Positions 5,111 to 21,544 are shown, numbered from the stretch's first letter. The stretch: 24,000 nucleotides of DNA from an uncultured Geobacter sp. (GCA_964389825.1 CAYMFO010000031.1:1-24000); one strand, 5' to 3'. Notes: generated by a model not told the origin, from the letters alone. A program made the numbers and translations.

Positions 5111-7021
5111 TTATTTCCTCCTGGGCAGACGCTTGTCCCCTACCCTGATGGTCACTTTTTCCTGATCGAAGTATTCCAGCAGCGGCATCATGAACTTGCG
5201 GGAAAGACCTGTTATCTCCCGGAATTCCGGCGGCGTGATCTCTCCCTTTTCCCTCAGATATCCCACGAGGCGCGCCCTGATCTCCGCCAGAGCTTCCGGC
5301 GCGTAGAAGACATCACTCTTGATCTTCACCACCCTGCCGGTCCGCGCCAGAAGGTTGATGTGATCCATCAGTTCCTTTTCCCCCCTGCCGAGACGCTGCC
5401 CCAGCTCCTTCAGGTTGGGGGGCTCCATGCCGGCATCCCGCAGCGCGGCCTCGATCTTTTCCAGCAGCTCCTCTCCCGAAGGTTCGCCTCCCGCCTTCCA
5501 CCCCGGTTTTTTCACCAGGTCCCTGTCCACGATGGCCTTTTCTTCCTTCTCCAGGGACGCAAGGAGCGGACCGAAGAAGCGGAGGTCCGACCTCCTGGGG
5601 ATGCGGGCCTTCAGCTCTTCCTTGCCGATCCCCTCCTTCAGGGGATTTTCCCGCAGATATGCGTCAAGGCCTTCGAGCAGCAGCGTCTTCAGGGCCTCGA
5701 ACGACTCCTTGGCCAGCAGGATGCGCGGCTCGCGCACCATCTGCGACACCAGTCCCTTGGAAAGAAGGGCGGCAAGAGCGGCCTCGGTCCGTTTCGCCGA
5801 AATGCCGCCGCGGATGACGAGCTCATCCATGGTGATGCCGGTGAGCAGGCTTTCCCTGGTCAGGAGGAGTATCCTGTCCGCGTCCTCCCCCCCTTCCAGC
5901 GATTGCAGGAGCTCCAGCGCCTGGGCCGAACGGCGGCGGCGGCGCGGAGGCGCCGGGTCCAGCACCTGTCCGCCACCAACGGTAATCTCCGGGGAATAAC
6001 TGCGCATGATGAACAGGTCTCCGGGCAGGAGCAGCACCGGTTTCTTGAGGCGCAACTGGACCAGGGTGGAATCCCCCGGCTTGAGGGTGTCCCGGTCCAG
6101 CAGGATCACCTGGGCGGACACCTCATAGGTGGCGGAATGAAGGCGGAGGGTGGCCCGGTGCTTCAGTTCACGGGGCGCGGAAGGGAGAAAACCCAGACGG
6201 GCATCCACGGCCCGGGTGGATCGGAACGCCCCGCGGGGCGCCACCACGTCGCCGCGCGCGATATCGGTATATTCCACCCCCTGGAGATTGACCGCCACCC
6301 GCTGCCCGGCTGAACCCAGGTCCGCTTTCCGGCCGTGGGTCTGGACGCTGCGCACCCGCGTCTCAATGCCGGAAGGGAGAAGCTCCACCTCGTCGCCGGT
6401 GCGGATCTCCCCGGAAAGGAGAGTGCCGGTCACCACCGTGCCGAAGCCGGCCACGGTGAACACCCGGTCCACGGGAAGCCGGAACGGACCGCCCGTGGAT
6501 TTTTCCTCCACCTCGACCGCCAGCGCGGCCAGCCCGGCCTTGATATCCTCCAGTCCCTCGCCGGTCCTGGAAGAGACAGGGATAACCGGCGCGCCCTCGA
6601 GAAAGCTGCCCATGAGGTACTCACGCACCTCTTCGGCGACCATGTCCAGCCATTCCGCTTCCACCATGTCGCTCTTGGTAAGGGCCACCAGGCCCTTCTT
6701 CACTCCGAGCAACTGGCATATCTCCAGGTGCTCCCGCGTCTGGGGCATAACCCCCTCATCAGCGGCAATCACCAGCATCACCAGGTCCATGCCGCCAACG
6801 CCGGCAACCATGGTGCGGACGAATTTTTCATGGCCGGGCACGTCCACGATGCCGAAGCGGATATCGCCCGGCAGGTCCATGTGGGCGAATCCCAGTTCGA
6901 TGGTGATGCCCCGCTCCTTTTCTTCCTTGAGGCGATCGGTGTCGATGCCCGTAAGCGCCCTGACGAGGGATGTCTTGCCGTGGTCGATGTGGCCGGCGGT
7001 TCCGAGAATAAGGTGTTTCAT
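5111..7021 (-). CDS. selB: Selenocysteine-specific translation elongation factor
   Basis: 636 aa. G-domain motifs [19 protein letters not shown] and TKSD, followed by a long C-terminal winged-helix extension as in bacterial SelB. SD AAAGGA upstream of the ATG at 7021. Confidence 0.95.
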
Positions 7022-7291
7022 GGGATGTCCTTTTGACCTTTATTTCAATGGTGGGCGCATATGTAAATGCCGATTCGGCGCAAGTCGCATGCGGACGTAT
7101 TGTACCCATGGCGGCAATGATAGCCAACAAAAAAGAGCCCGTTTCTTCTTTAGCCATCTCCGGCAATCTGAATACGGGAAGACGCTGATTGGCTTTGCAA
7201 TTATATATTGCATAGTGATAATATATTTCCATAAACACTTTCCGTATTCCAACCATCTCTTCCCGGATCAAACACCCACAAGGAAAGGATC

Positions 7292-8299
7292 GTGAAAGCA
7301 TTTCATTTTTTCGGAATAATCTGCTGCGCCATTCTATCTCTCATCCCTCCGCTCCTTGTGAGCATAATTCTTGCGGCGCTAGTCCTTAATACGCACACCG
7401 GGGCGGCGACCGACTATACGTCCGGAATGCATCTCACTTCTCCGCCGCCTCCCATTGAACAGCCCCTGACTCTCAGGATCATCACCTATAATATTGCTGA
7501 CGGATACCTTTTCACAAATAACCGGCCTGAGCGCATGCGCGCAATCGGCGCCCTACTGACGAAACTGGATCCCGACATCGTGGGAATACAGGAATCCTTT
7601 GTGGGGAAAGACCGGAAAATTCTGCTCGAAGCGCTGTCTGAATCACGCCTCCGGTATCACGCGGACTACCCTGCGGCAACAGTAGGTAACGGACTCTTGA
7701 CGCTCAGCGCCTATCCAATTGTCGAAACCGTATTCCACCGCTTCGAAAATAACAATCCCTGGTACAAAATTCATCAGGGTGACTGGTGGGCGGGCAAGGG
7801 CATTGGACTGGCAAGGATCCGCCTTCCGTCCGGGGGCAGGATTGACTTTTACAACCTTCATGCGCAGGCCGAACGCAACGATGAAGCCAACAGCAAGGTG
7901 CGCTACCGGCAGATGGGCGAGCTGGTAACTTTTGTCAACGCCACGAGGACCATCACCTCCCCGGCATTCGTTCTAGGAGATTTCAATACGAGAATGGAAC
8001 AACCCGACCTGCGGAGAGCAATGGAAGGCGCCCACCTGATCCCTGTTGTAACTATGGATTCGGGGATCGACGCAATCTTTGCCGCAAAGACACCAGGCTA
8101 TTCAATCACAGCTGTCGAAACTTTACCCATAAGCGGTGAAACAACAGGGAGCAATCCCCCCATATTTCTGTCCCGGGCGCCGACACCGTCAGAACTCTTG
8201 CGGATGCTTTTCGGACCACGCGAGGTCACTCCCCTGAGCGATCACCTGGGTTTCATGAGTACAGTTATAATCTCACCCGCCACTGTCTCATACAATTGA
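7292..8299 (+). CDS. Endonuclease/exonuclease/phosphatase (EEP) family protein with N-terminal membrane anchor (sphingomyelinase-like)
   Basis: GTG start after AGGAAAGGA. N-terminal hydrophobic helix. EEP signatures [32 protein letters not shown] and LSDHLG. Confidence 0.8.
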
Positions 8300-8412
8300 G
8301 TTCAAAACTCGATGCAGCTTGGGGAAGAGCCGCGGTCCTGGTTTTTCATAGGCAAGACAAATCAATATTGCCGCATATCGAGTCATTCCACACTGTTACG
8401 GGAGCGCTAAAC

Positions 8413-8742
8413 ATGGAAAACAAAACAATCCGCAGAACGGAAGCAACGGTAGCAACCGTCTTTTTTGTTATCATCCTGATGACCATCAATCTTATGCTCC
8501 CCGCAAAGGCAACAGGTTCGATGCCGGTGGAAAAGACGCTTACCGGCTGCGTAATCAAGGGGCAATTCTACAGCATTACAATGGATTCTCGAACAAACAG
8601 GCCGGTTAAGGCATACCCGATCCGGATTGGGCAAGACCTCGACCTTGCCGCCTATGAGGGGAAAACCGTTTCCATGACCGGCGCCCTCCTGCCGGGTGAT
8701 CGGTTTATTCTCGAGCGAGGCGCCAGGCCTGCAGTGATTTAA
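8413..8742 (+). CDS. Small secreted or membrane-anchored hypothetical protein
   Basis: Internal ATG at 8413 with GGGAG upstream. N-terminal hydrophobic segment VATVFFVIILMTINLMLPAKA resembles a signal peptide or anchor. No recognisable family. Confidence 0.5.
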   Translation: MENKTIRRTEATVATVFFVIILMTINLMLPAKATGSMPVEKTLTGCVIKGQFYSITMDSRTNRPVKAYPIRIGQDLDLAAYEGKTVSMTGALLPGDRFILERGARPAVI

Positions 8743-8790
8743 GGCGCCTGTGATAATGACAGCATCAGCGTTATACGCAAAGAGTTTGTC

Positions 8791-9214: not shown

Positions 9215-9970
9215 TTAAGGCTGCGCATTTCTTCCGCCCCGGCACAGTTTCAGATTTGTGCGGGCGGCATTCAGAATCGGCCAGTAGGTGTCGGCGTCGG
9301 CCGGCGGATACTCCTCGCGGATCTGTTCGTCCGTCTTTGCGGCGTCGGCTTCGAAACCTTTCAGAAGAGAAAGACAGATATCATCACGCTTCATCCTGTG
9401 ATAGGCGAGGGCGAGGTCGTTTTGTATCCAGCCCCTGTCCAGCCAGGTCATGGTCTTTGCACACTCCGTCAGCACAGGTTCCAGGAGGGCAACCGCTTCC
9501 GCATAGGCCTTCCTGTCATAGAGAACCTTGAAATCACGCCGGGATTTCCGTATCGCCCTGGGCAGGCAGGCCGGAGCGGGCTTGAAATATTCACCTTCAA
9601 AATAGGCGCGCATGCCGCAATAATAGTGACACGGTTCGTACGTCTCGGAACTGACCTTGATCGCGGCGCCCTTCGGGTCGAATCTGATGACGCACGCCTC
9701 GCCGGACTCGGTCAGGGTTGCGCTGCCATTCCTTATGACACCTTCCAGGCTGCACATGTGGGCGTTTCCACCCAGGGCGAATATGGTGAAGGAAAGCATG
9801 CCGTCCTTACCCTGCTTGATGGTCAGGTCACCCCACCCCCCTTCCGTTATATAGATTCCAGGATCGATAGCGCCCCCCTGCGCGCAGAGAGATTGTGGCG
9901 CCGCCAGAAAAATCAAGAACATCGACAAAAGCGGCAGTATCCGGCGCCAAAAGTTGAACGGCATTTTCAT
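9215..9970 (-). CDS. Secreted hypothetical protein (signal peptide, Cys-containing beta-rich domain plus C-terminal TPR-like helices), immediately downstream of hgcB
   Basis: ATG at 9970 preceded by GGAAGGAAG. N-terminus MKMPFNFWRRILPLLSMFLIFLAAPQSLCAQG is a typical signal peptide. Same strand as hgcAB, 116-nt gap. Confidence 0.65.
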   Translation of the reverse strand: MKMPFNFWRRILPLLSMFLIFLAAPQSLCAQGGAIDPGIYITEGGWGDLTIKQGKDGMLSFTIFALGGNAHMCSLEGVIRNGSATLTESGEACVIRFDPKGAAIKVSSETYEPCHYYCGMRAYFEGEYFKPAPACLPRAIRKSRRDFKVLYDRKAYAEAVALLEPVLTECAKTMTWLDRGWIQNDLALAYHRMKRDDICLSLLKGFEADAAKTDEQIREEYPPADADTYWPILNAARTNLKLCRGGRNAQP

Positions 9971-10086
9971 ACGGCTTCCTTCCAGGAACATATCTCCTTT
10001 CCCTCCCATTATCTTCAATAGCCGGGGGAATTCAACCGGTTCACTTTTCACGAAGACCGGGCGGCACATTCAGCCGGAACCCGATT

Positions 10087-10377
10087 TCAGGAACAGCAGC
10101 CTCTGTCGGAACGACCGATACCGTGCTTGCGCAGCCAGCGGTGTATCATGCCCGAAGCGCAACCGACCCCCGCATCCACCCGGATTGCGTCGAAGGGACA
10201 ATTTCTCATGCATGCCCCGCACTCCATGCAGGCATCCAGGTCCACGATGCGGGCAAGGCCTTTTTCCATACCGAATACCTGGTGAGGGCAGACCTCCACG
10301 CACCAGCCGCAGCCTTTGCATTTCTCCCTGTCCATCCTCAACGTAGCCACGTTCCGCAAGTACCTGAAACCCTTCAT
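10087..10377 (-). CDS. hgcB: Mercury methylation ferredoxin HgcB (2x[4Fe-4S])
   Basis: 96 aa from the ATG at 10377 (SD AAAGGAGA). Two CX2CX2CX3CP motifs (CKGCGWCVEVCP, CMECGACMRNCP), an additional Cys in GVGCASG, and a C-terminal vicinal Cys pair (RGCCS*). Begins 17 nt after the hgcA stop. Confidence 0.9.
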   Translation of the reverse strand: MKGFRYLRNVATLRMDREKCKGCGWCVEVCPHQVFGMEKGLARIVDLDACMECGACMRNCPFDAIRVDAGVGCASGMIHRWLRKHGIGRSDRGCCS

Positions 10378-10394: not shown

Positions 10395-11414
10395 TTAACG
10401 GGGCAATCCGGCGAGGACAAGGAGTCCGCCGATAATCAAGGCGAACCCCATTGCCGGCAACGCGAACCTCATCTCCTTTCTCACCCCCGATGGCGAGGTG
10501 AAGGTGGTGCAACCGGTGAAATTGAGGGTGTAGAATGCGCTCACCGCCGGAAGGGCAAGAAAGGCGCCGCCAATCGCAGCGTAATTCATACCCTGGATAC
10601 CGATGGCAAGGAAGTATGCCGCGGTCCAGACAATTCCCACCAGCGCCCCCTTGAAAGAAAAACTCCGGCCGGGAAGAAGGCCGAACAGGAGGGGTCCGAC
10701 GACTATTCCGGACAGCGCGGCGCCGATAAAGGCGACCAGCGCCCGAAGCGCGGCGGCCGGCCCCAGGAAGAAAGCAACCGTCAGAAACAGAAGCCCGCCG
10801 GCAACGCCCAGAGGCTTCAGAGCCGTCACCAGCTCCACCGGCGTCAGCGCCAGCCGCTCCCGGAAAGTAAATGTCAGCTCCCGCATGGCCGGCGTTGTCA
10901 CCATACCGTTGTCCAGGTATTCCGGCAGGTCGTTCGCCCGGATGGCCGCATAACGCACTTCGAAACCGGTCCGCTTTTTCACTTCATGGGCCGCAACGCC
11001 CGGCGCTCCCAGGATCGGTAGTATCAGGGTCGCCCGGCCGGCGAATGACTTCAGATTGGTCGCCTCAATCCTCGCTATCAGCTCTCCGGTACCGAAAGTC
11101 CCCTTTCCCGCCGCACACCAGACGTTGACTCCGAAGGTCTCGAGGACGAGGAGCCAGATGTTCCGTCCCGCCAGGGAGCGGCGCACGATGTCGTAACTCA
11201 TCTTGTAATTGGCGGTCACGACCACCGGATCTCCGGGCGACGGCGCGCCGACGGCGTACAGGCCGGGAGGAACCAGATAACTCATGCGGCCAATCCCCCA
11301 CCGGGCCTTCCATGCGCCGCAACGATCCGAAAAGGCGAGTTCCGGAGATATTCGCGCAACCCTGCCGGATTCCGTAACCAGCCATCCAAGAAAGCCCGGA
11401 ACCGATTCATCCAC
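10395..11414 (-). CDS. hgcA: Mercury methylation corrinoid protein HgcA
   Basis: 339 aa from a GTG start. The N-terminal corrinoid-binding domain carries the diagnostic cap-helix motif NVWCAAGKGTFG (codons at 11103-11126, Cys codon 11115-11117). The C-terminal half is a hydrophobic domain of about 5 helices. Followed by hgcB. Confidence 0.92.
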   Translation of the reverse strand: MDESVPGFLGWLVTESGRVARISPELAFSDRCGAWKARWGIGRMSYLVPPGLYAVGAPSPGDPVVVTANYKMSYDIVRRSLAGRNIWLLVLETFGVNVWCAAGKGTFGTGELIARIEATNLKSFAGRATLILPILGAPGVAAHEVKKRTGFEVRYAAIRANDLPEYLDNGMVTTPAMRELTFTFRERLALTPVELVTALKPLGVAGGLLFLTVAFFLGPAAALRALVAFIGAALSGIVVGPLLFGLLPGRSFSFKGALVGIVWTAAYFLAIGIQGMNYAAIGGAFLALPAVSAFYTLNFTGCTTFTSPSGVRKEMRFALPAMGFALIIGGLLVLAGLPR

Positions 11415-11601
11415 TACTCCGCCGCCGGCGGAGGTTTCCGGTCCTCAACAGGGTGGTTTTTCCATGCCTTGCGCCGGAGAATCACAACCATTGGATGATT
11501 CCACCTTCTTCTTTTCAGCAAGGATGTTTCCGGTTTCCATTTCACAAGATTCCATTTCAGGGCCTTCCGTTTATGCGCCTGGGCAACAGCTATCGTGCAA
11601 G

Positions 11602-11745: not shown

Positions 11746-11771
11746 ATTATATGATTATGCAATCATATAAT
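11746..11771. promoter_or_regulatory. Perfect 11-4-11 inverted repeat, candidate ArsR/SmtB operator overlapping the arsR promoter
   Basis: ATTATATGATT (11746-11756), atgc, AATCATATAAT (11761-11771). Contains TATAAT (11766-11771) 17 nt before the arsR ATG. TTGACT/TTGACG -35-like hexamers lie at 11720-11730. Confidence 0.55.
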
Positions 11772-11788: not shown

Positions 11789-12103
11789 ATGAACGACAGA
11801 GACGTACTACTTGCGGACATCCTGAAGGCCATGGCTCAACCGACCCGTCTGAAGATCATCGAATTCCTGCGGGACGGGGAGCGATGCGTCTGCGAGATAT
11901 TCCCGGCCATTGACGAAGAGCAGTCCAACACATCCCGCCACCTGAACCTTATGATGAACCTCGGGATACTCAGGCGCCGCAAGGAAGGCGTAAAGATCTT
12001 TTACGCCCTGAAGTACCCGGAGGTCCTGGAGATACTGGGCCTGGCATCATCGATCCTGAAGAAGGAGATAAACGGCAAGAGCGACCTGCTCCGGGCTGTG
12101 TAA
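11789..12103 (+). CDS. arsR: ArsR/SmtB-family metalloregulator (divergent from hgcA)
   Basis: 104 aa. KAMAQPTRLKIIEFL, a CVC motif (GERCVCEI), and recognition helix SNTSRHLNLMMNLGILRRRKEG. Confidence 0.9.
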   Translation: MNDRDVLLADILKAMAQPTRLKIIEFLRDGERCVCEIFPAIDEEQSNTSRHLNLMMNLGILRRRKEGVKIFYALKYPEVLEILGLASSILKKEINGKSDLLRAV

Positions 12104-12211
12104 ACGGAAGCCTTCGCGCGATATGCGCCAATGATACTGGGGTCTGCTGTGGAAAAAAAGATATTCTCCCCGCCAGGACTCCATAACAAACGACCGAAAA
12201 GGAGAAAGAGG

Positions 12212-12439
12212 ATGAAGATCGAGATTCTGGGAACCGGATGCGCGAAATGCAAGAAGCTGTATGAAAACACCCTGGAAGCGGTGAAACTGAGCGGCAGGCA
12301 AGCCGAGGTGGGAAAGGTTGAAGACATCAGGAAAATCAGTGAATACGGAGTCATGGCCACCCCCGCCATCGTAGTGGACGGCGAGGTAAAGGCATCGGGC
12401 AAGCTCCTTTCACCTGACGATATCATGAAGCTTCTGTAA
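12212..12439 (+). CDS. Small thioredoxin-fold protein (redox-active disulfide protein 2 / TM0996-MTH895-like)
   Basis: ATG at 12212 after AAAAGGAGAAAGAGG. 75 aa: MKIEILGTGCAKCKKL (CxxC) ...ATPAIVVDGEV, as in the small Trx-like proteins that commonly accompany ArsR plus permease genes. Confidence 0.8.
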   Translation: MKIEILGTGCAKCKKLYENTLEAVKLSGRQAEVGKVEDIRKISEYGVMATPAIVVDGEVKASGKLLSPDDIMKLL

Positions 12440-12454
12440 GGTCGAGCCAGCGCC

Positions 12455-13759
12455 ATGAATGCTTCAATTGTAAAGAAGCCGGCGGGAAGCGCCGGAATTC
12501 TCTTCCGCGCGCTTCTGTTGCTCCTTGTTATTACGGCTCTCCCGGCGCCCCTTCCCGCCCTTGCGGACAGCGCGTCGCGGGCGGACAACCCGGCCTTGTT
12601 CTTCTTCTGGGGGATCGGCTGCCCCCACTGTGAGGATGCCAAGCCGTTTGTTGAATACCTTGGACAAAGCTATCCCGGAATACGGATCCACTCCCTGGAG
12701 GTTGTTAAAAACAAGAATAACCTGAATCTGATGGAAAGAATGGTTCGGGAAAGGGGCGCGGAATCCAGCGGCGTGCCGGTATTCATCATTGGAAAGAGCG
12801 TTTTCTCTGGATTCAATCACACCATGACACGCGGGATCGAAGAAGCCGTTTCGGAAGAGATCGCCCGCAAAAAGCCCGGCGGCGAGCCTTCCGCCCGGCC
12901 TCCGGCACGAAAAGAAGCGGATACCATCTCCCTTCCCTTTATCGGGAAAAGGGACGCCGCCTCTTTTTCCCTCCCGGTCTTTACCGTTGCGGTCGCGGCC
13001 CTGGACAGCTTCAATCCCTGCGCCTTCTTCGTCCTCCTCACCCTTTTGAGCCTGCTCGTCCATGCGCATTCACGCAGGCGAATGCTGCTCATAGGGGGGG
13101 TGTTCGTCTCCGTTTCCGGCATTCTCTACTTTTTCTTCATGGCCGCCTGGATGAACCTCTTTTTCGTTGTCGGGCACCTCTCCGTGGTAACCAGGGTCGC
13201 GGGAATAACGGCCCTCGCCATAGCAATCATCAACATCAAGGACTATTTCCTGTTCAGAAAGGGCATATCCCTTAACATCCCGGAGAAATCAAAACCGAAG
13301 CTGTTCGAACGCATGCGGGGACTCATGCGCGCGGAATCCCTCCCCTCGGCGCTCACCGGCACAATCATCCTGGCAGTCGCGGCAAACAGCTACGAACTGT
13401 TATGCACCGCCGGTTTTCCCATGGTGTATACCCGTTTTCTCACCATGCATTCCCTGTCGACAGCCGGTTACTATGCCTATATTGCCTTCTACAATCTTGT
13501 CTACGTCATCCCCCTGGCCATCATTGTTTCCTTCTTCGTCATTACCATGGGGAGCCGCAAGCTCAGCGAATGGCAGGGACGCGTCATGAAGCTCGTATCC
13601 GGGATGATGATGTGCGGTCTTGCCTTCGTTCTCCTCCTGAAACCGGAACTGCTGCAGGATGTCAAGGCCTCGGTCCTTCTCTTCCTGGGGGTCCTCATCA
13701 CCTCTGCCCTTATCGTCCTGGTGACGCGAAAAAGGCTTCAGTCCCGTCGGGCGCCATAA
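12455..13759 (+). CDS. Fusion protein: signal peptide, periplasmic thioredoxin-like CxxC domain, and a DsbD/CcdA-like polytopic membrane domain
   Basis: 434 aa. Signal-like N-terminus ending PALADS. Trx motif FFFWGIGCPHCEDAKPF, charged linker, then about 6 hydrophobic helices with membrane-embedded Cys motifs (LDSFNPCAFF, YELLCTAGFP). Confidence 0.75.
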   Translation: MNASIVKKPAGSAGILFRALLLLLVITALPAPLPALADSASRADNPALFFFWGIGCPHCEDAKPFVEYLGQSYPGIRIHSLEVVKNKNNLNLMERMVRERGAESSGVPVFIIGKSVFSGFNHTMTRGIEEAVSEEIARKKPGGEPSARPPARKEADTISLPFIGKRDAASFSLPVFTVAVAALDSFNPCAFFVLLTLLSLLVHAHSRRRMLLIGGVFVSVSGILYFFFMAAWMNLFFVVGHLSVVTRVAGITALAIAIINIKDYFLFRKGISLNIPEKSKPKLFERMRGLMRAESLPSALTGTIILAVAANSYELLCTAGFPMVYTRFLTMHSLSTAGYYAYIAFYNLVYVIPLAIIVSFFVITMGSRKLSEWQGRVMKLVSGMMMCGLAFVLLLKPELLQDVKASVLLFLGVLITSALIVLVTRKRLQSRRAP

Positions 13760-13895
13760 ACCGCACTTAAACGCCACAAGCCATTTGCGAGTTACGACGA
13801 AACGGCCTCAGGGGTTCCGGAACGCGCCAGTAAGCAGTTTTTCAGAAACCGCCTGGACGAACGGGCGCACATCAAGCAAAAAGAGAGGAACCGGA

Positions 13896-14276
13896 GTGAA
13901 AAAGATATTATTGGCATCATTGGCTCTCATTCTATTCGTAACCTCGGCCTTCGCCAACGACAGGGGATCCGAGCCGATCATCCGGCAGGCGCTTGCTTCG
14001 GGCAGGCCTACCCTTGTCGATTTCGGCGCCGCCTTCTGCGTCCCCTGCAAGCGGATGAAACCGATACTGGATGCGCTGAAAACGGAATACTCAGGCAGGG
14101 CAAACGTTATCTTCGTGGACATCAAGCAGGAACGTGATATGGCTTCCCGGTACCGCATAATGCTCATGCCGACCCAGGTCTTCTATGATGCCGGGGGAAA
14201 AGAGATGAAAAGACACATGGGGTTCATGGACAAACCGGAAATCATAGCGGAATTCAAGGCCCTGGGCGTAAAATGA
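13896..14276 (+). CDS. Periplasmic thioredoxin-family protein (TlpA/ResA-like) with signal peptide
   Basis: GTG at 13896 after AGAGAGGA. VKKILLASLALILFVTSAFA signal peptide. LVDFGAAFCVPCKRMKP CxxC motif. Its stop overlaps the ccdA start (ATGA). Confidence 0.8.
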   Translation: MKKILLASLALILFVTSAFANDRGSEPIIRQALASGRPTLVDFGAAFCVPCKRMKPILDALKTEYSGRANVIFVDIKQERDMASRYRIMLMPTQVFYDAGGKEMKRHMGFMDKPEIIAEFKALGVK

Positions 14277-14959
14277 GCTTCCTGGACAATATCGAGCACA
14301 TCATCGCGGCATACCCTATCATCGCCTTCGGCGCGGTGTTTCTGGCCGGGATTATTTCATCCGCCTCCCCCTGCGTCCTGGCCACAATCCCCCTGGTGGT
14401 CGGGTACGTGGGCGGGTATGCGGACGGAGACCGGAGAAAGGCCTTTCTCTATTCCGTCGCCTTTATCCTGGGACTTTCCCTTACCTTCACCGCATTCGGC
14501 GCGGCCGCGGGCATGCTCGGCGTCATGTTCGGGATGATCGGCGGCTGGTGGTACGCGGCCCTGGGCGTGGTCGCGGTGGCCATGGGGCTTCAGATGCTGG
14601 GCTTGTATCAGCTTCGCCTTCCCTTTCATGTGGAGGTGAAGCCGAAGCGGAAGGGGATTTTCGGGGCCTTCCTGCTGGGCCTGTTTTTCGGCGTCGTGTC
14701 CTCGCCATGCGCCACGCCGGTACTGGTGGTGATCCTTACCCTGGTGGCCAGCAAGGGCGAGGTAGCCTACGGCACGGCGCTCCTCTTCGTGTACGCCGTC
14801 GGCCACTGCATGCTCATGCTGCTGGCCGGGACCTTTACCGGCTTTGTCGAGGCATTTGTCAAGGCAAAGGGCGTGAGGAACTTTTCCGAATGGTCGAAGC
14901 GGATCGGCGGCGCAATCATATCTCTGGTGGGGGTGTATCTGCTGTATCAGGCGTTCTGA
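14273..14959 (+). CDS. ccdA: CcdA/DsbD-family transmembrane thiol:disulfide electron transporter
   Basis: 228 aa, about 6 TM helices, with conserved Cys motifs SSASPCVLATIPL and VSSPCATPVL. ATGA-coupled to the upstream thioredoxin. Confidence 0.85.
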   Translation: MSFLDNIEHIIAAYPIIAFGAVFLAGIISSASPCVLATIPLVVGYVGGYADGDRRKAFLYSVAFILGLSLTFTAFGAAAGMLGVMFGMIGGWWYAALGVVAVAMGLQMLGLYQLRLPFHVEVKPKRKGIFGAFLLGLFFGVVSSPCATPVLVVILTLVASKGEVAYGTALLFVYAVGHCMLMLLAGTFTGFVEAFVKAKGVRNFSEWSKRIGGAIISLVGVYLLYQAF

Positions 14960-15079
14960 GTCTGCTGTCCGGGAATGGCGTGGGGATTTTCAGAAAGTTA
15001 CATCATGATTGGAATCCGACAAGCATGAACTGAGTTTCCAGGTTGGCGGGGAAGAAAATGGATGTGAAAGGACAACAGT

Positions 15080-16381
15080 ATGAACTGGAAGGATGAGTGG
15101 AAACCACTCACACTGATTATTGCGGTGTTTCTCGCCTGCTACTACCTGCCCGTGGGTACGGGACGCTTCGACAATGCAATTCTGGAAGCATTTCATCTGG
15201 TCAAGTGGTACGCGCAGGAGCATGTGATCCTGTGTCTGGTGCCGGCCTTTTTCATTGCAGGCGCCATTGGCGTGTTTGTCAGCCAGGCATCGGTGATGAA
15301 GTACCTGGGACCCAGGGCCAACAAGGTGCTGGCCTATGGTGTGGCGTCGGTATCCGGCACCATCCTGGCGGTCTGCTCCTGCACCGTGCTGCCGTTGTTT
15401 GCCGGCATCTATTTCCGCGGCGCCGGCTTGGGTCCTGCGTCGGCCTTTCTCTATTCGGGACCGGCGATCAATGTCCTGGCCATCGTTCTCACTGCGCGGG
15501 TGCTCGGTCCGGAACTGGGCATAGCCCGGGCCGTGGGCGCGGTTGTTTTCAGTGTCGTCATCGGCGTGTTGATGCACCTTATCTTTATCAAGGAAGAGCG
15601 GGAAAAAGCGGAAGCCCAGGTGGTCCTGCCCGAGGACGGGGTGAGTCGGCCTCTGTGGCAGAACGCGCTCTACTTCGCTTCCATGGTCGGCATCCTGGTG
15701 TTCGCCAACTGGGGAAAACCGGCAGAGCCGACCGGCGTCTGGGCAGCCCTCTATCAGAACAAGTGGATTCTCACTTCGCTCTCGGCGCTTGCCCTGAGTA
15801 TCATGATGGTGGCGTGGTTCGGCGTGAAGGCCTGGAAGGTGGTTTCGTCGGTGATAGTGGTTGCCGTTCTGGCGTTCATTTTTCCCGGGCAACCGATGGT
15901 CCCCTTCATTGTCGGCGTAATAGCCCTCTCGCTCATCACTACCACCGGCACGGAGGAAACCTCCGAATGGTTTTCTTCCACCTGGGATTTCGCGAAAAAG
16001 ATTCTCCCTCTGCTGCTGTTCGGCGTGCTGATTGCCGGAGCGCTTCTGGGACGGGTCGGGTACGAGGGAATCATCCCCTCGGAATGGGTGGCTCGTGCGG
16101 TGGGCGGCAACTCCCTGTGGGCCAATTTCTTCGCATCGTTCGCCGGGGCTTTCATGTACTTCGCAACCCTGACCGAGGTGCCGATCCTGCAGGGTCTGAT
16201 TGGTTCGGGTATGGGCAAGGGGCCGGCCCTGGCTCTGCTGCTGGCCGGACCGGCCCTGTCGCTCCCCAACATGCTGGTGATCCGCAGCATCATGGGGACC
16301 AGGAAGACGGTGGTGTTCGTATCGCTCGTCATTATCATGGCGACCATAACCGGTATGATATTCGGCGCCTTTTTCGGATAA
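15080..16381 (+). CDS. Polytopic permease of the PF03773 (ArsP/YraQ-like, 'predicted permease') type
   Basis: 433 aa with SD GAAAGGA. Multiple TM helices and a vicinal Cys motif LAVCSCTVLPLF, like the Cys pair in ArsP-type permeases. Substrate unknown. Confidence 0.75.
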   Translation: MNWKDEWKPLTLIIAVFLACYYLPVGTGRFDNAILEAFHLVKWYAQEHVILCLVPAFFIAGAIGVFVSQASVMKYLGPRANKVLAYGVASVSGTILAVCSCTVLPLFAGIYFRGAGLGPASAFLYSGPAINVLAIVLTARVLGPELGIARAVGAVVFSVVIGVLMHLIFIKEEREKAEAQVVLPEDGVSRPLWQNALYFASMVGILVFANWGKPAEPTGVWAALYQNKWILTSLSALALSIMMVAWFGVKAWKVVSSVIVVAVLAFIFPGQPMVPFIVGVIALSLITTTGTEETSEWFSSTWDFAKKILPLLLFGVLIAGALLGRVGYEGIIPSEWVARAVGGNSLWANFFASFAGAFMYFATLTEVPILQGLIGSGMGKGPALALLLAGPALSLPNMLVIRSIMGTRKTVVFVSLVIIMATITGMIFGAFFG

Positions 16382-16866
16382 TGGGAATCGCTACCCTTTC
16401 AATCACAGGTATCGGCGCCATGCTCAAGATCGTAGGGAAAGCCCTGTGCATATTCGTCCTGATACAAATTTTCCTTCTTCATCATGCTGAAGCGGGAGTG
16501 ATTGGCATAACAAACAAAGAATTGTCGGCTTTGCTCGAACAAGGAGTACCTGTCATAGACATCCGCACTGAAAGGGAATGGCGGGAAACCGGCGTTATAC
16601 CGGGCAGCCATCTGCTGACCCTGTTCGACGAAAGGAGGCGGATGCTGGATCCCGGGGTCTGGCTGGAAAAGGTCCGGGCACGGGTTCCAATGGACAGACC
16701 GGTTATCCTTGTCTGCCGCGTCGGCAACCGCACCGTTCCGGCAACGAGATTTCTGGCAACATCAGGATACAAAACTGTGTACAACGTAACCGACGGTTTA
16801 GTGCCATGGATCAAGGCCGGCAAGCCGATAGTGAAGTATCCCGGCTCCTTGTCGGGGTCAATCTGA
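16381..16866 (+). CDS. Rhodanese-domain sulfurtransferase with N-terminal signal/anchor
   Basis: ATG overlaps the permease stop (TAATG); an alternative ATG lies at 16420. Hydrophobic N-terminus, then a rhodanese fold with the active-site loop CRVGNRT. The 589-aa ORF in the track is real only in its last ~161 codons. Confidence 0.75.
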   Translation: MGIATLSITGIGAMLKIVGKALCIFVLIQIFLLHHAEAGVIGITNKELSALLEQGVPVIDIRTEREWRETGVIPGSHLLTLFDERRRMLDPGVWLEKVRARVPMDRPVILVCRVGNRTVPATRFLATSGYKTVYNVTDGLVPWIKAGKPIVKYPGSLSGSI

Positions 16867-17146: not shown

Positions 17147-17506
17147 ATGGGAAAAAGAGGATTTGTGCTGTGCGTCTGCCAGGGAACTTGCCCCAGTTTC
17201 ACCAAGATGGATATTTTCGGCGTACTATCCGATGTGCGGCGGGAGAAGCTCTTTGATTACGTCTGCCTCCATCCGCAGTTGTGTGTCGGTGACGGTGACG
17301 AGTTTATCAAGGTGTTGCTTTCCGGCGGGGAGACGGAAAAACTCTATGTGGCGGGATGCGACCCCAGAATGCAGGAAAAAATGTTTCGTGACGCCTTCGA
17401 AGCCGCGGGTTTCGACAAGGAAAAGCACGTGGCGCTGGATATTCGCAACAAGACCACGGAAGAGGCTGTCGCAGCCATCAAGAAAATGGCGGTTGGAAAC
17501 CCGTAA
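17147..17506 (+). CDS. Cys-rich putative Fe-S protein, distantly MvhD/FlpD-like (tentative)
   Basis: Strong SD AAGGAGG. 119 aa with FVLCVCQGTCPSF, YVCLHPQLCVGDG and YVAGCDPRMQ. Cys spacing and overall layout resemble hydrogenase/heterodisulfide-reductase delta-subunit-like domains. Family assignment is uncertain. Confidence 0.6.
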   Translation: MGKRGFVLCVCQGTCPSFTKMDIFGVLSDVRREKLFDYVCLHPQLCVGDGDEFIKVLLSGGETEKLYVAGCDPRMQEKMFRDAFEAAGFDKEKHVALDIRNKTTEEAVAAIKKMAVGNP

Positions 17507-17517
17507 AGCGAGGGCTC

Positions 17518-17799
17518 ATGAAAGAGTGGCGGGGAATACCCAGAGAAGAGATCCCATGGTTTCCAACCATCGAAGGGGAGAAGTGTGTCGGTTGCAGATC
17601 CTGCGTGGAGTTCTGCCCCAATGATGTGCTGGCTTTCGATGAAGTCGCGGGGAAAGCTCGGGTCAAGAATCCGTACAACTGCGTGGTTGAGTGCAAGACC
17701 TGCGCAAAGTTTTGTCCCGCAGATGCGATATCGTTTCCGGGCGAAAAGGAATTCTCCACGTTCATCAGGAAAAAACTCGCGGGAGTGGAAACGGCATGA
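17518..17799 (+). CDS. 4Fe-4S dicluster ferredoxin
   Basis: 93 aa, 11 nt after the previous gene. CVGCRSCVEFCP and C..CKTCAKFCP motifs. Confidence 0.85.
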   Translation: MKEWRGIPREEIPWFPTIEGEKCVGCRSCVEFCPNDVLAFDEVAGKARVKNPYNCVVECKTCAKFCPADAISFPGEKEFSTFIRKKLAGVETA

Positions 17800-17853
17800 A
17801 ATCCTGATTCGGGACTGCCTTACGAAAAGGTGAAAAACAGGGAGGTGATTGGC

Positions 17854-18096
17854 GTGAAACGGAGAATATGCCGTAATTGCGGTCAGGAAATGAAGAAAGA
17901 GCTTACACCGGAAAAGGTGAGGTTTTTCTGCATGCAGTGCGATGGGTATACCCCGTTCGACGAGCTCGACATGGAACCCTTCTGTCCCGAATGCCACAAA
18001 AAGCTGCAATTCTGCGCCAAATGCAGTTCCGCATTCTTCTGCGACACGTGTAATGCCATTATTTCCAGAAAAAAGATTGTCTGGAAGGAGAAATGA
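17854..18096 (+). CDS. Small zinc-ribbon protein with five CxxC pairs
   Basis: GTG at 17854 preceded by GGGAGG (ORF opens at 17830). CRNC, CMQC, CPEC, CAKC and CDTC motifs in about 80 aa. Confidence 0.6.
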   Translation: MKRRICRNCGQEMKKELTPEKVRFFCMQCDGYTPFDELDMEPFCPECHKKLQFCAKCSSAFFCDTCNAIISRKKIVWKEK

Positions 18097-18149
18097 TCAG
18101 GTTGTTCTTCCACCGGGAAAAGGGACACATCGAAACCCGGAATTTGGAC

Positions 18150-18178
18150 TTGCATTAAGCCGGATATACGGATATATT
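18150..18178 (+). promoter_or_regulatory. Candidate sigma70 promoter of arsR-arsC-acr3 overlapped by a tandem CGGATA repeat
   Basis: TTGCAT (18150-18155), 17-nt spacer, TATATT (18173-18178). CGGATAtaCGGATA lies at 18161-18174, and TATACGGATAT at 18165-18175. The -10 ends 6 nt before the arsR ATG. Confidence 0.4.
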
Positions 18179-18184
18179 CAAGGC

Positions 18185-18523
18185 ATGAAAAACACCGCTC
18201 GCATGTTCAAGGCCCTTTCCGATGAAACCCGCCTTCGCATTCTCTGCCTGCTGCTGGAGGGAGAGTTGTGCGTCTGCGACTTGATGGCGGTGCTCCAGCT
18301 TCCCCAATCCACTGTTTCGCGGCACCTGGCCTACCTGAAGAACTCCGGATGGGTGGATGACCGCAGGTGCGGGGTGTGGATGTACTATTCCATCACGGGC
18401 AACGGCGGCCAATTACGGAATGGGTTGCTCGAAAGCCTGCGCAATGCCGTGCCCGGCCTCGAAGTCGCCGCCTCGGATCGCGGGCGCCTGAACGAGATGG
18501 GACAAAACAGCAGGTGCGCATGA
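18185..18523 (+). CDS. arsR: ArsR-family arsenic-responsive repressor
   Basis: Internal ATG at 18185. FKALSDETRLRILCLLLEGELCVCDLMAVLQLPQSTVSRHLAYLKNSGWV carries the ELCVCDL As(III)-binding motif and the HTH. Confidence 0.9.
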   Translation: MKNTARMFKALSDETRLRILCLLLEGELCVCDLMAVLQLPQSTVSRHLAYLKNSGWVDDRRCGVWMYYSITGNGGQLRNGLLESLRNAVPGLEVAASDRGRLNEMGQNSRCA

Positions 18524-18587
18524 GTATGCGGATAAATGGCTGAAGACGTAAGGGAAACCGATATATTTTTTGCCACATTAACCCGCT

Positions 18588-18598
18588 TATACGGATAT
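18588..18598 (+). promoter_or_regulatory. Second exact copy of the TATACGGATAT motif, 16 nt upstream of the arsC start
   Basis: This 11-mer is identical to 18165-18175. A related CGGATA lies at 18529-18534, and ATCCGTAT at 19056-19063 upstream of acr3. Confidence 0.35.
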
Positions 18599-18613
18599 CC
18601 CGAAGGAGAGATT

Positions 18614-19048
18614 ATGCCTAAAAAGAGAGCTCTTTTTCTCTGCACCGCCAACTCCTGCCGCTCGCAGATGGCGGAAGGGATTGCCGGCCATTTCCTGGGA
18701 GACCTGCTGGAGGCGTTTTCCGCGGGTACCGAGGCATCCTTTGTCAACCCGCGGGCCATCGAGGTGATGCGGGAAATCGGTGTCGATATCTCCGGGCAGC
18801 GCTCCAAGAACTTGGACGAATTTTCGGGCCGGTCCTTCGACTACGTGATTACCCTGTGCGGGGACGCCAATGAAAAATGTCCCCTCTTCTTCGGTGGAGT
18901 GCCAAGGACCCACATGGGTTTCCCGGATCCAGCCGGGGCGAGGGGTACGGAAGAAGAGATCATGGCGGAGTTCAGAAAGGTCAGGGATGACATGAAGGAC
19001 AGACTGACGGATTTCTTCAGGAAACAGTTGAAACAGGTTCCCGTGTAA
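18614..19048 (+). CDS. arsC: Arsenate reductase, LMW-PTP / thioredoxin-coupled type
   Basis: ATG after GAAGGAGAG. P-loop LFLCTANSCRSQMAEG (CX5R) and the downstream Cys pair TLCGDANEKCP, as in pI258-type ArsC. Confidence 0.9.
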   Translation: MPKKRALFLCTANSCRSQMAEGIAGHFLGDLLEAFSAGTEASFVNPRAIEVMREIGVDISGQRSKNLDEFSGRSFDYVITLCGDANEKCPLFFGGVPRTHMGFPDPAGARGTEEEIMAEFRKVRDDMKDRLTDFFRKQLKQVPV

Positions 19049-19081
19049 GAATCAAATCCGTATCGCAAGGAGGAGAGAGTC

Positions 19082-20161
19082 ATGGTACAGGGACTTACCA
19101 AAAGGCTTTCGTTTCTCGACCGTTATCTCACCGTATGGATCTTCGCGGCCATGTTTCTCGGCCTGGCGCTGGGATACTTTGTGCCGGCGTCAAAAACCCT
19201 CATCAACAAGTTTCAGGTGGGAACGACCAATATCCCCATCGCCATCGGCCTGATCCTGATGATGTATCCTCCCCTGGCCAAGGTCAAGTACGAGGAGATG
19301 CCCGAAGTGTTCAAGAACAAGAAGGTGCTCCTCCTTTCCCTGGCTCAGAACTGGCTGGTGGGACCGATCCTCATGTTCGCCCTGGCCCTGATTTTCCTGC
19401 GCGACTACCCCGAGTACATGGTCGGCCTCATCATGATGGGAATGGCGCGCTGCATCGCCATGGTCATCGTCTGGAACGACCTTGCCTGCGGCGACCGTGA
19501 GTATGCCGCCGGCCTGGTTGCGTTCAACTCAATCTTCCAGGTGCTGTTCTTCTCGGTCTACTGCTATGTTTTTGTTACGGTTCTGCCGCCGCTGTTCGGC
19601 ATCAAGGGGGCTGTGGTGAACATCACCATGGGCGAGATCGCCAAGAGCGTCTTCATCTACCTCGGCATACCGTTCCTTGCCGGAATGATAACCCACTTCA
19701 GCCTCACGCGCATCAAGGGCAAGGAATGGTTCGAAAAGTCTTTCGCCCCCGTCATCAGCCCACTTACCCTGATCTTCCTCCTGTTCACCATCTTGGTCAT
19801 GTTCGCCACCCAGGGAGACAAGATCCTGAGCAGGCCCTTTGACGTGGTCGTGATTGCAATCCCGCTTCTCATCTACTTTGTGGTCATGTTCGTTGTATCC
19901 TTCTTCATGAGCAAGAAGCTGGGCACCAACTACGAGAAGAGCGCCACCTTGTCGTTCACGGCGGCCAGCAACAACTTCGAGCTTGCCATTGCCGTTGCCA
20001 TCTCCGTGTTCGGCCTCAACTCCGGCCAGGCATTCGCCTCGGTCATCGGCCCGCTGGTGGAGGTGCCGGTCCTCATCAGCCTGGTCAATCTGGCATTCTA
20101 TTTTCAGAAAAAATATTTTCCCAAGCCCCTTATTATGCCTAAAAGATGCGATGTACCGTAA
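19082..20161 (+). CDS. acr3: ACR3-family arsenite efflux transporter
   Basis: 359 aa, about 10 TM helices. [13 protein letters not shown]-terminus and the conserved GMARCIAMV motif. SD AAGGAGGAGAG. Confidence 0.92.
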
Positions 20162-20197: not shown

Positions 20198-21544
20198 ATG
20201 AACGGCGCCGAACTGAAAAAAATCGAAAACTTTTCCGAATCCGAACAGCTTCCCTCCGTCAGGAGCTATCCGTCGCGCCTCTTTGTGGAGACGACCACCC
20301 GCTGCAACATGAAATGCCACATGTGCGTCAAACAGAGCATGGGCAGCGGACTGGTGGAGGGCGACCTTTCCTTCGAGACATTCGAGGCCATTGAACCGGC
20401 CCTTCCCCGGACTGAGGCGCTGCTCCTCAACGGCATCGGCGAGCCCCTTCTACATAGAAACCTGGAGTCTTTCATATCCAGGGCAAAGGAATTGATGCCC
20501 GCCGGAAGCTGGGTGGGCTTCCAGTCCAATGGACTTCTTCTCGACAAAACCCGCGCGTCATCCCTGGTCAGCGCGGGCCTGGACCGGATATGTCTTTCCC
20601 TTGACGCCATCTGTCCGGAAACATTCAGGAAAATCAGGGATGGGGGCGAGGTGAAAGACCTGGAACAGGCATTCACCGCACTCAAAACCGCCCGGAAATG
20701 GCATCCTGAAAGCAACCTTCAGGTGGGTGTCGAGTTCGTCGTCATGCGCGACAATATCCACCAGCTTCCCGACGTATTAAGGTGGGCCGCTGCGGCGGGT
20801 GTTTCCTTCGCTATTGTCTCTCATCTTCTCCCCTATGGCAGGGAACACGTCTCCCAGATTGCTTATGATTACAATACGCGGGAGGCCGTGGAACTATATG
20901 AGAAATGGCTCGGGAAGGCTAAGAAACGGGGAATCGACATCAGCGGATTCTTCCACACCTATCACTGCAAGTTTCTGAGGACCGCGGAAGAGCAGCGCAT
21001 GGTTGATTTTGTTCTGGAGATGCTGGCTGAAGCAAGGGCGAGAGACATCTTCCTGCACCTGGAGAACATCATGAAGAGAGATGTGGCCATGGCCGGCCAA
21101 CTGGCCGAAACCTTCCAGAAGGCCAGGGAGGTCGCCGTGGAGACGGGACTTGATCTCCGCCTTCCCGAAACCTCTCCCAGAAATGAGAGAAAGTGCGACT
21201 TCATAGACAATGGGGGGATGTTCATCTCCTGGGACGGGGATGTCCATCCCTGCTACTTTCTCTGGCACACATTCCAGTGTCACTTCTCCGGCCGCAAGAA
21301 ATATGTGAACAGGAAGATATTCGGAAATATCAACGACAAAGGTATCCTGGATATATGGAACGATCCCATGTATCGGGAGTTCAGGGAGGAGGTCACAAAG
21401 CACGAGTATCCATTCTGCTCCAACTGCAACCTGCTTCCCTGCGAATACATATATTGCGAGGAGTTCGAGCAGGACTGCTACGCCAACACCGTCCCCTGCG
21501 GTGACTGTTTCTGGTGCATGGGGCTATTTCAGTGCCTGTCGTAA
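20198..21544 (+). CDS. Radical SAM enzyme with C-terminal SPASM/twitch-like auxiliary-cluster domain
   Basis: 448 aa. CNMKCHMC (CX3CX2C) near the N-terminus, GIGEPLL SAM-binding motif. The C-terminus has CX13GX4C (CDFIDNGGMFISWDGDVHPC) and CSNCNLLPCEYIYC plus further Cys residues. Last gene of the same-strand ars cluster. Confidence 0.85.
   Translation: MNGAELKKIENFSESEQLPSVRSYPSRLFVETTTRCNMKCHMCVKQSMGSGLVEGDLSFETFEAIEPALPRTEALLLNGIGEPLLHRNLESFISRAKELMPAGSWVGFQSNGLLLDKTRASSLVSAGLDRICLSLDAICPETFRKIRDGGEVKDLEQAFTALKTARKWHPESNLQVGVEFVVMRDNIHQLPDVLRWAAAAGVSFAIVSHLLPYGREHVSQIAYDYNTREAVELYEKWLGKAKKRGIDISGFFHTYHCKFLRTAEEQRMVDFVLEMLAEARARDIFLHLENIMKRDVAMAGQLAETFQKAREVAVETGLDLRLPETSPRNERKCDFIDNGGMFISWDGDVHPCYFLWHTFQCHFSGRKKYVNRKIFGNINDKGILDIWNDPMYREFREEVTKHEYPFCSNCNLLPCEYIYCEEFEQDCYANTVPCGDCFWCMGLFQCLS

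Follow-up and report, generated by a model that had tools for sequence, protein, structure and literature searches.

In 2010, CcdA, a thioredoxin (Trx) and Trx_3 were listed among the determinants of ars operons, together with a proposed role in the support of arsenate reductase, and ArsP was described in forms of ~300 and ~400 amino acids (aa) (PMC2963123). ArsP is now cited as a methylarsenite efflux permease, and ArsE, ArsF and ArsG as organoarsenical resistance functions (PMC9144182). In strain ND132, an ArsR-ArsP-ArsE operon is induced by arsenic and an ArsR-like protein controls the mercury-methylation genes hgcAB (bioRxiv 10.1101/2022.10.17.512643), which are documented to be flanked by arsR, arsC, acr3 or arsM (PMC7438021; PMC10349881). 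Here we analyze a seven-gene cluster, headed by arsR and divergent from hgcAB, at positions 11789-16866 of a 24,000-nucleotide stretch of DNA from an uncultured Geobacter sp. (GCA_964389825.1 CAYMFO010000031.1:1-24000), hereafter the window. The initial annotation had called the combination of ArsR, permease and small thioredoxin functionally unassigned, which is out of date given the roles cited for ArsP and ArsE/ArsG (PMC9144182; bioRxiv 10.1101/2022.10.17.512643), and had proposed a relay passing Hg(II), or species of As, Sb or Se, across the membrane to or from HgcAB. We consider it fairly probable that we are dealing with a lineage-specific form of an accessory operon, controlled by ArsR, from the arsenic-resistance islands of Geobacter-like bacteria, and that the cluster is not mercury-specific. 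This somewhat better than even confidence applies to the class of mechanism, that is, envelope protection and efflux, derepressed through ArsR, against thiol-reactive metalloids; we hold the details with less.

The seven co-oriented genes carry the domains first claimed for them, as borne out by ORF (open reading frame) listing and profile searches (bit scores are given with cut-offs after 'vs'):

11789..12103, + strand: arsR, repressor of the ArsR/SmtB family with a CVC alpha-3 site (GERCVCEI); HTH_5 48.6 bits, NF033788 84.9 bits vs 55
12212..12439, + strand: cytoplasmic Trx_3 protein of the MTH895/ArsE family (75 aa, CAKC at residues 10-13); PF13192 90.8 bits, TIGR00412 100.8 vs 62
12455..13759, + strand: fusion protein (434 aa) with a signal peptide, a CPHC domain of thioredoxin/glutaredoxin fold and a polytopic membrane domain; invariant columns in 22 homologues
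13896..14276, + strand: secreted thioredoxin TrxP (CVPC); PF00085 59.3 bits, signal-peptide-like N-terminus
14273..14959, + strand: ccdA, DsbD-type transmembrane thiol-disulfide electron carrier; PF02683 (DsbD_TM) 90.1 bits vs 27.1
15080..16381, + strand: long-form permease of the ArsP/PF03773 (ArsP_1) family, 433 aa, VCSC motif; PF03773 238.3 bits vs 32.3, profile positions 8-293 of 294
16381..16866, + strand: secreted or anchored single-domain rhodanese (CRVGNRT loop, residue 112); PF00581 53.5 bits vs 22.2, N-terminal hydrophobic segment

The ArsR-headed operon structure is real. Both overlaps reported initially are in the sequence, an ATGA (14273-14276) that couples TrxP translationally to ccdA and a TAATG (16379-16383) at the start of the rhodanese gene, and a perfect 11-4-11 palindrome lies just 5' of arsR. 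The gene order is identical in loci L001 and L002, at 90-100% protein identity, and the core of the module recurs in six more distant islands, which excludes a chance pattern of ORFs. TrxP starts at a GTG (13896) preceded by the Shine-Dalgarno sequence AGAGAGGA. Signal-peptide-like N-termini are present on TrxP, the fusion and the rhodanese, and the Trx_3 protein has neither a signal peptide nor a hydrophobic segment. In the membrane, CcdA carries two embedded Pro-Cys motifs, ASPC (Cys34) and SSPC (Cys146), and the permease a vicinal Cys motif (LAVCSCT, residues 99-101). The proposals that thiol motifs are exposed at both membrane faces, and that CcdA and the secreted thioredoxin are a coupled reductive pair directed to the periplasm, are thereby supported.

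Regarding the single components, arsR orthologues with 65-72% identity head the module in L013, L025, L115, L164, L166 and L169. CcdA orthologues, found at 73-98% identity, are annotated in the source as cytochrome c biogenesis proteins, and the pair of CcdA and TrxP is kept in L164-L169 and L172, as befits dedicated partners. The CSC motif of the permease has been highlighted for relatives of SO_0444 and SaoE (bioRxiv 10.1101/2022.07.06.499078); as an equivalog of either, the window's permease scores far under the cut-offs (104.5 vs 300 and 103 vs 325, respectively). The rhodanese may start at an internal ATG (16420), considering that its relatives measure only 139-146 aa, in which case the TAATG overlap disappears. 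A six-residue C-R-x-G-x-R loop marks rhodaneses of the sulfurtransferase type, and a seven-residue loop those of the Cdc25/Acr2 type; the loop found here is the six-residue one.

To place the cluster, we sampled from the side of the module, with 80 genome loci collected through the fusion gene and six contexts collected through CcdA orthologues (76-91% identity), and looked for hgcAB within a radius of 10 kb. All six CcdA contexts have the order arsR-(short arsP, ~315 aa)-Trx_3-Trx-ccdA and continue to arsC-acr3. In five of them the long arsP follows ccdA, encoding 433 aa in L164-L167 and a 439-aa ArsP_1 protein in L169, and the same five contain arsR2-arsC-acr3 and a radical SAM gene. In the sixth, L168, arsC-acr3 comes directly after ccdA, with no second arsR and no radical SAM gene. 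Neither hgcAB within the radius nor the fusion and rhodanese genes were found in any of the six. From the 80 fusion-sampled loci, seven more bear the module with no hgcAB within 10 kb (L013, L025, L020, L056, L080, L044 and L066), Sulfuritalea and Sideroxyarcus being among them. The Geobacter metagenome-assembled genomes L013 and L025 and the Nitrospirota loci L020 and L056 hold the fusion, Trx_3, Trx, ccdA and arsP interleaved with arsR, arsC or acr3. A cluster dedicated to hgcAB, or specific for mercury, does not agree with a core that is joined to arsR-arsC-acr3 in six of six CcdA contexts and to hgcAB in none.

In L167, the genes of a regulator of the MerR family and of a P-type ATPase that matches HMA faintly (5946-8771) lie immediately 5' of arsR and the thiol module, a further system for soft-metal efflux attached to this block.

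The window itself has the same surroundings. Downstream of the cluster lie:

17147..18096, + strand: companion trio of a Cys-rich 119-aa protein, a 2x[4Fe-4S] ferredoxin and a double zinc ribbon, conserved in relatives
18185..20161, + strand: ars operon of arsR2 (CVC), a thioredoxin-type LMW-PTP arsC (18536-19048) and acr3; HTH_5 68.7, LMWPc 77.6 and TIGR00832 454.7 bits vs 282.8
20198..21544, + strand: putative radical SAM/SPASM 'Geobacter metalloenzyme maturase'; TIGR04311 653.3 bits vs 400

The succession arsR2-arsC-acr3-radical SAM places the cluster within an arsenic-resistance island, of which the TIGR04311 gene directly after acr3 is a conserved end, found also in L164-L167 and L169. 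The pair of 119-aa protein and ferredoxin stands between the module and arsR2 in L165, L166, L167 and L169, and is present in L115 as well; the zinc-ribbon gene recurs in L164, L165, L167 and L169. The 119-aa protein has a weak similarity to the HdrA N-terminus (21 bits), and the best NCBIfam match of the trio's ferredoxin is HgcB, at 46 bits and under the cut-off of 99.

The other side of the cluster faces genuine hgcAB, as NCBIfam equivalog scores bear out, across a divergent control region:

3367-4764, + strand: selA, 4-8 kb from hgcA
5111-7021, - strand: selB, 4-8 kb from hgcA
10087..10377, - strand: hgcB, mercury-methylation ferredoxin ending in GCCS; NF040864 128.2 bits vs 99
10395..11555, - strand: hgcA with an N-terminal extension (conventional ORF 10395-11414); NF040863 418.9 bits vs 275
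11746..11771, no strand: putative ArsR operator, the perfect 11-4-11 palindrome ATTATATGATT-atgc-AATCATATAAT, overlapping a TATAAT box

HgcA has the cap-helix motif N(V/I)WCA(A/G)GK in the form NVWCAAGK, and the GCCS of HgcB is its C-terminal Cys tail. Its upstream translation contains an in-frame TGA (11445-11447) within MEKPPC-TGA-GPETSAGGGVVDESVPGF, giving the motif PPC-U-GPE, and a Cys-selenocysteine (Cys-Sec, CU) selenoprotein form has been described for most HgcA proteins (bioRxiv 10.1101/2022.07.06.499078). The in-frame extension, the Cys-Sec motif, the presence of selA and selB in the window and a 15-nt in-frame indel within the extension, relative to L001 (a 96-98% identical relative), indicate that hgcA is probably a selenoprotein gene starting at the ATG at 11555. 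Hence, the gap between hgcA and arsR, first given as 374 bp, measures 233 bp, and these 233 bp are 100% identical in L001. A GC-rich hairpin begins 11 nt 3' of the hgcA TGA; as a statistically unusual SECIS it was rejected, its fold z-score (+0.39) not being distinctive.

The palindrome is the only match in the window, where 0.05 would be expected by chance; a search of the remaining sequence, the stretches 5' of the 119-aa protein gene and of arsR2 included, found no second copy. Related palindromes lie directly 5' of arsR1 orthologues in L115, L164, L166 and L169, and 5' of arsP in L172. Since it recurs 5' of the module with and without hgcAB, the palindrome appears to be the module's own putative operator, whether hgcAB is near or not.

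When compared to L001 and L002, which are 96-98% identical to the window, both flanks of the block of hgcAB and thiol genes are indel hot spots: the relatives have ~2.2 kb extra between hgcB and a 284-aa ORF (window 9215-10087 vs L001 4636-7647) and ~3 kb extra between the zinc ribbon and arsR2 (window 18096-18185 vs L001 15637-18897). The first insert holds a sigma-70 factor and two CMD genes, plus an Rdx-family ORF in L002; the second, a CMD gene, an MqsA-like antitoxin and hypothetical genes.

According to the gene content, the operon might work as follows. The inducer would be a metalloid that reacts with thiols, the likeliest being As(III) or a trivalent organoarsenical, for example methylarsenite; it would bind the CVC site of ArsR, and the loaded repressor would leave the palindrome at 11746-11771. 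The ArsP-type permease, through its intramembrane CSC motif, would extrude the thiol-reactive species. Electrons would pass from the cytoplasmic Trx_3 to CcdA and on to the secreted CVPC thioredoxin, which would keep periplasmic cysteines reduced or re-reduce those bridged by a metalloid. The secreted rhodanese is a plausible client that this thioredoxin may turn over, and the reduction of persulfides would free sulfide able to thiolate or precipitate As or Hg. The CPHC::membrane fusion would be an insertion of this lineage that adds a second thiol-disulfide module across the membrane. Finally, hgcAB would share the divergent control region as a member of the same ArsR-governed island. Within the profile of TsoB, CcdA aligns to positions 182-390 and the secreted thioredoxin to positions 455-559, and these separate positions hint that the parts may work as one chain.

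Across 22 homologues of the fusion, the motifs CPHC, LDSFNPCAFF and ANSYELLCTAGFPM do not vary, and neither do the cysteines C189 (NPC) and C317 (LLCTAGFP) in its membrane helices, each next to a proline. In an AlphaFold2 model (pLDDT 73), the N-terminal domain adopts a thioredoxin fold that matches thioredoxins in the PDB. The membrane domain had been called DsbD-like, and this could not be confirmed: it shows no sequence or profile similarity to DsbD_TM, DsbD_2 or CcdA. Residues 165-434 have no Pfam match even at E <= 10, the domain has no sequence or fold match in the PDB, and a comparison of the family profile with a CcdA alignment in hhalign yielded a probability of 0.4%. A Foldseek search of the PDB returned no membrane protein at E <= 0.001 for the fusion, all credible matches (TM-score to target ~0.6) being thioredoxins. 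Judged from its sequence, the resemblance to DsbD is a motif-level analogy only (S-x-N-P-C-A). The family has members in at least 577 species, among them Geobacter, Nitrospirota, Gallionellaceae, Sulfuritalea and Methanosarcinales; it is large and uncharacterised and, with a membrane domain that matches no Pfam family, seems new. The gene mostly stands alone. A conserved neighborhood was looked for and rejected, the only recurrent neighbor being the LMW-PTP arsC, in 14 of 76 loci, and hgcAB was within 10 kb in two of the 80 genome loci (L007 and L008), with unrelated genes in between. CPHC is an active site of the DsbA type. This, and the presence of another fusion, VKOR::DsbA-like, just 5' of the rhodanese gene in L147 and L143, and between ccdA and rhodanese in L147, make an oxidising or isomerising role of the CPHC fusion at least as likely as a reductive one, so that it may run in the oxidising, DsbA-like direction.

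One could argue that the redox genes are an electron supply for the thioredoxin-type ArsC, with Trx_3 and the thioredoxin reducing ArsC and CcdA being incidental, as was proposed in 2010 (PMC2963123). The arsC gene of the same island, the arsC directly after ccdA in L168 and the arsC directly after the fusion gene in many Nitrospirota loci speak for this explanation, and the cytoplasmic Trx_3 could indeed reduce ArsC. Yet ArsC is cytoplasmic, while the CVPC thioredoxin, the thioredoxin domain of the fusion and the rhodanese all bear export signals and CcdA moves electrons outward; at most Trx_3 fits, and the topological problem was noted by the proposal's own authors (PMC2963123). Hence, we regard it as rather unlikely.

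A second alternative is that the module serves HgcAB: the ArsP-type permease would export methylmercury (MeHg), in the way that ArsM is paired with ArsP for methylarsenite, or would import or hand off Hg(II), and the periplasmic thiol proteins and the rhodanese would buffer Hg(II) and MeHg. This bears on how often the module lies near hgcAB, which we also measured from the side of hgcA, in a sample of 80 metagenomic hgcA loci whose HgcA is 57-68% identical to that of the window, and one further locus at 97%. Upstream counts refer to the 52 hgcA loci with at least 1.5 kb of 5' sequence, within a radius of 6 kb. From these 52, 20 have arsR, arsC or acr3 upstream of hgcA, and six have parts of the thiol module, sometimes co-oriented. 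The clearest arrangements are:

L147: short arsP (arsP315), Trx_3, Trx, ccdA, VKOR::DsbA-like fusion, rhodanese, hgcA and hgcB, all co-oriented, with overlapping frames of rhodanese and hgcA
L143: VKOR::Trx, rhodanese, hgcAB
L112: Trx_3, Trx, ccdA, hgcA
L094/L095: Trx, hgcAB
L105 and L115: module and ars genes, divergent from hgcAB

The VKOR::DsbA-like thioredoxin fusion of L147 (2374-3471, + strand) and L143 (67-1092, + strand), directly 5' of the rhodanese gene and then hgcAB, holds a position in the module comparable to that of the CPHC fusion in the window, though the two are distinct membrane thiol oxidoreductases.

The proximity of module and hgcAB is therefore recurrent and non-random, yet a minority arrangement from both directions of sampling, and it parallels the far commoner adjacency of ars genes and hgcAB. 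The initial annotation would have given up its link to hgcAB had the cluster been equally common elsewhere and not enriched beside these genes; the cluster is indeed common without hgcAB, but a lack of enrichment does not fully hold, since parts recur directly 5' of hgcA and some local enrichment there is real. These six loci, with the co-oriented, overlapping arrangement of L147 and the similar upstream positions in L143 and L112, favor a service to HgcAB. So do the position of the module, always 5' of hgcA, and the mutual identities of HgcA in the module-bearing loci, mostly 58-70%, which imply that several HgcA lineages are involved. A further point in its favor comes from L164 (6768-7763, - strand), L165 (6826-7842, - strand) and L166 (6823-7839, - strand), where arsM is head-to-head with arsR, in the slot held by hgcAB in the window; this arsM matches the solved arsenite methyltransferase 5evj over its full length (E = 5e-83). 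Nevertheless, hgcAB is missing within 10 kb from the six CcdA-sampled islands and from the seven further loci found through the fusion, those of Sulfuritalea and Sideroxyarcus included, and the ordinary ars genes 5' of hgcA in 20 of 52 loci mean that the published linkage of ars and hgcAB can explain the proximity (PMC7438021). The reading as a mercury relay finds no Mer-type domain in any of the seven genes: MerT, MerP(HMA), MerC, MerF, MerE, MerA, MerB and MerR are absent from them and from the scanned flanking ORFs. Taking both sides together, we think that a module serving HgcAB is unlikely.

The rhodanese was the gene most suspected of a tie to hgcAB. It is directly 5' of hgcA in L147 and L143, lies in the island next to hgcAB here and in L115, and is missing from the six islands free of hgcAB. 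As an hgcAB-specific element it was rejected, its orthologues being found away from these genes, beside mutS in Trichlorobacter (L170) and in an ars island free of hgcAB (L171), which also counts against a module serving HgcAB. A further orthologue follows ccdA in L172. This locus belongs to a Trx_3-Trx-ccdA-rhodanese-rhodanese variant seen in eight contigs from seven samples (L172-L179), every one of which ends in or shortly after the second rhodanese gene: two end inside it, and the contigs in which it is complete end ~100-750 bp past it. This suggests a repeat or a strain-variable junction at that gene, and as all of them break just after it, contigs of the L172 type are uninformative on the link between rhodanese and hgcAB.

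A more specific form of this idea would be that hgcAB replaces arsM at the divergent ArsR/ArsP slot and that the module is a 'back end' of mercury methylation, in which the long ArsP would export MeHg+ and the CcdA-thioredoxin-rhodanese set, with the CPHC or VKOR oxidoreductase, would handle Hg-thiols in the periplasm; in a variant, the native substrate of HgcAB would be a metalloid sensed by ArsR. We consider this reading very unlikely. Lastly, a housekeeping envelope redox system (cytochrome c maturation or Dsb-type) set by chance beside metal genes is extremely improbable: CcdA and a ResA/CcmG-like thioredoxin classically act as a pair in cytochrome c maturation, the CcdA orthologues are annotated accordingly and Geobacter-like organisms have many c-type cytochromes, but an arsR whose operator is conserved precedes the module, which in six of six contexts is set between arsR/arsP and arsC/acr3, and no ccs, ccm or res genes adjoin it.

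The ArsR-controlled metalloid-stress operon, which we prefer, has its own weak points. Its substrates are deduced from family names, and other soft metals, too, can be sensed at the CVC site of an ArsR. That the secreted thioredoxin acts reductively is a proposal, and so is the direction assigned to the fusion. In L147, L143, L112 and L094/L095, genes of the module abut or nearly abut hgcA on its 5' side and share its orientation, an adjacency that simple co-residence in an island does not require. Besides, the rhodanese and the fusion, which distinguish the window, are the genes least explained, as both are absent from the six CcdA-sampled arsenic islands.

In the literature on hgcA with rhodanese, and on hgcAB with thioredoxin and permease, we found no description of a Trx_3/Trx/CcdA/ArsP/rhodanese block beside hgcAB. 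Besides the fusion family, two observations seem new: the parts of the module immediately 5' of hgcAB in several HgcA lineages, sometimes co-oriented, and the exchange of arsM and hgcAB in one slot among three close relatives. The native role of HgcAB is debated and, to our knowledge, the routes of Hg(II) uptake and of methylmercury release in methylating bacteria are still undefined. This locus sets hgcAB in an ArsR-controlled island, where it shares a 233-bp control region with a proposed operon for (organo)metalloid export and periplasm reduction. The shared region offers a regulatory explanation for an arsenic-responsive expression of hgcAB, and the long ArsP permease, CcdA with its thioredoxin and the rhodanese are offered as candidates for the Hg(II) and MeHg routes. 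Both the Trx_3/Trx/CcdA block of ars islands and the CPHC::membrane fusion family are widespread.

Among the known systems, the Mer relay (MerP-MerT/MerC/MerF-MerA) is alike only in its general logic, with paired cysteines at either side of the membrane; the protein families are different throughout and no MerR-type regulator is among the seven genes. TsoB/TsoR, an NCBIfam 'rhodanese/DsbD fusion-like selenoprotein' with an ArsR-type regulator that is itself uncharacterised, shares with the cluster a rhodanese, a DsbD-type membrane domain, a thioredoxin and an ArsR-family regulator. Here, in contrast, the components are separate genes without selenocysteine, and membership in Tso (NF045694, NF045707) was rejected at 84.4 vs 805 for CcdA and 29.2 vs 115 for ArsR. 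The CcdA/ResA, CcdA/CcsX and ScsB/ScsC pathways likewise combine a DsbD-type protein that bears two Pro-Cys motifs with a secreted CxxC thioredoxin to which it is translationally coupled, whereas the pair in the window is under ArsR, in an ars island, and unlinked to cytochrome c or copper genes.

Closer to the cluster is the published linkage of hgcAB and ars genes (McDaniel 2020, PMC7438021; Gionfriddo 2022/2023, on the ArsR control of hgcAB), where arsR, arsC and acr3 flank hgcAB and an ArsR-family gene lies 5' of hgcA, as they do here. It lists arsR, arsC, acr3 and arsM, while the thiol block, the co-oriented arrangement and the exchange of the arsM slot were not found in the literature searched. 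The ArsR-ArsP-ArsE operons (Campylobacter ArsP, Shewanella ArsEFG, 'operon C' of ND132) share ArsR, a PF03773 permease with vicinal cysteines and a Trx_3 that passes the MTH895/ArsE model, and differ in that the window has no ArsF/DGC-domain protein. CcdA was also tried as ArsG and rejected (51.6 bits vs a cut-off of 200); this low score and the retention of both redox cysteines suggest an electron carrier rather than an exporter of the ArsG type. The ars-operon module of 2010 (PMC2963123) agrees with the cluster in its four gene families and in its type of operon, near arsR, arsC and acr3, and has both size classes of ArsP, 433 aa here and ~315 aa in relatives. To that module, the window adds the CPHC-Trx::membrane fusion and a secreted rhodanese; it does without the short ArsP, and it faces hgcAB.

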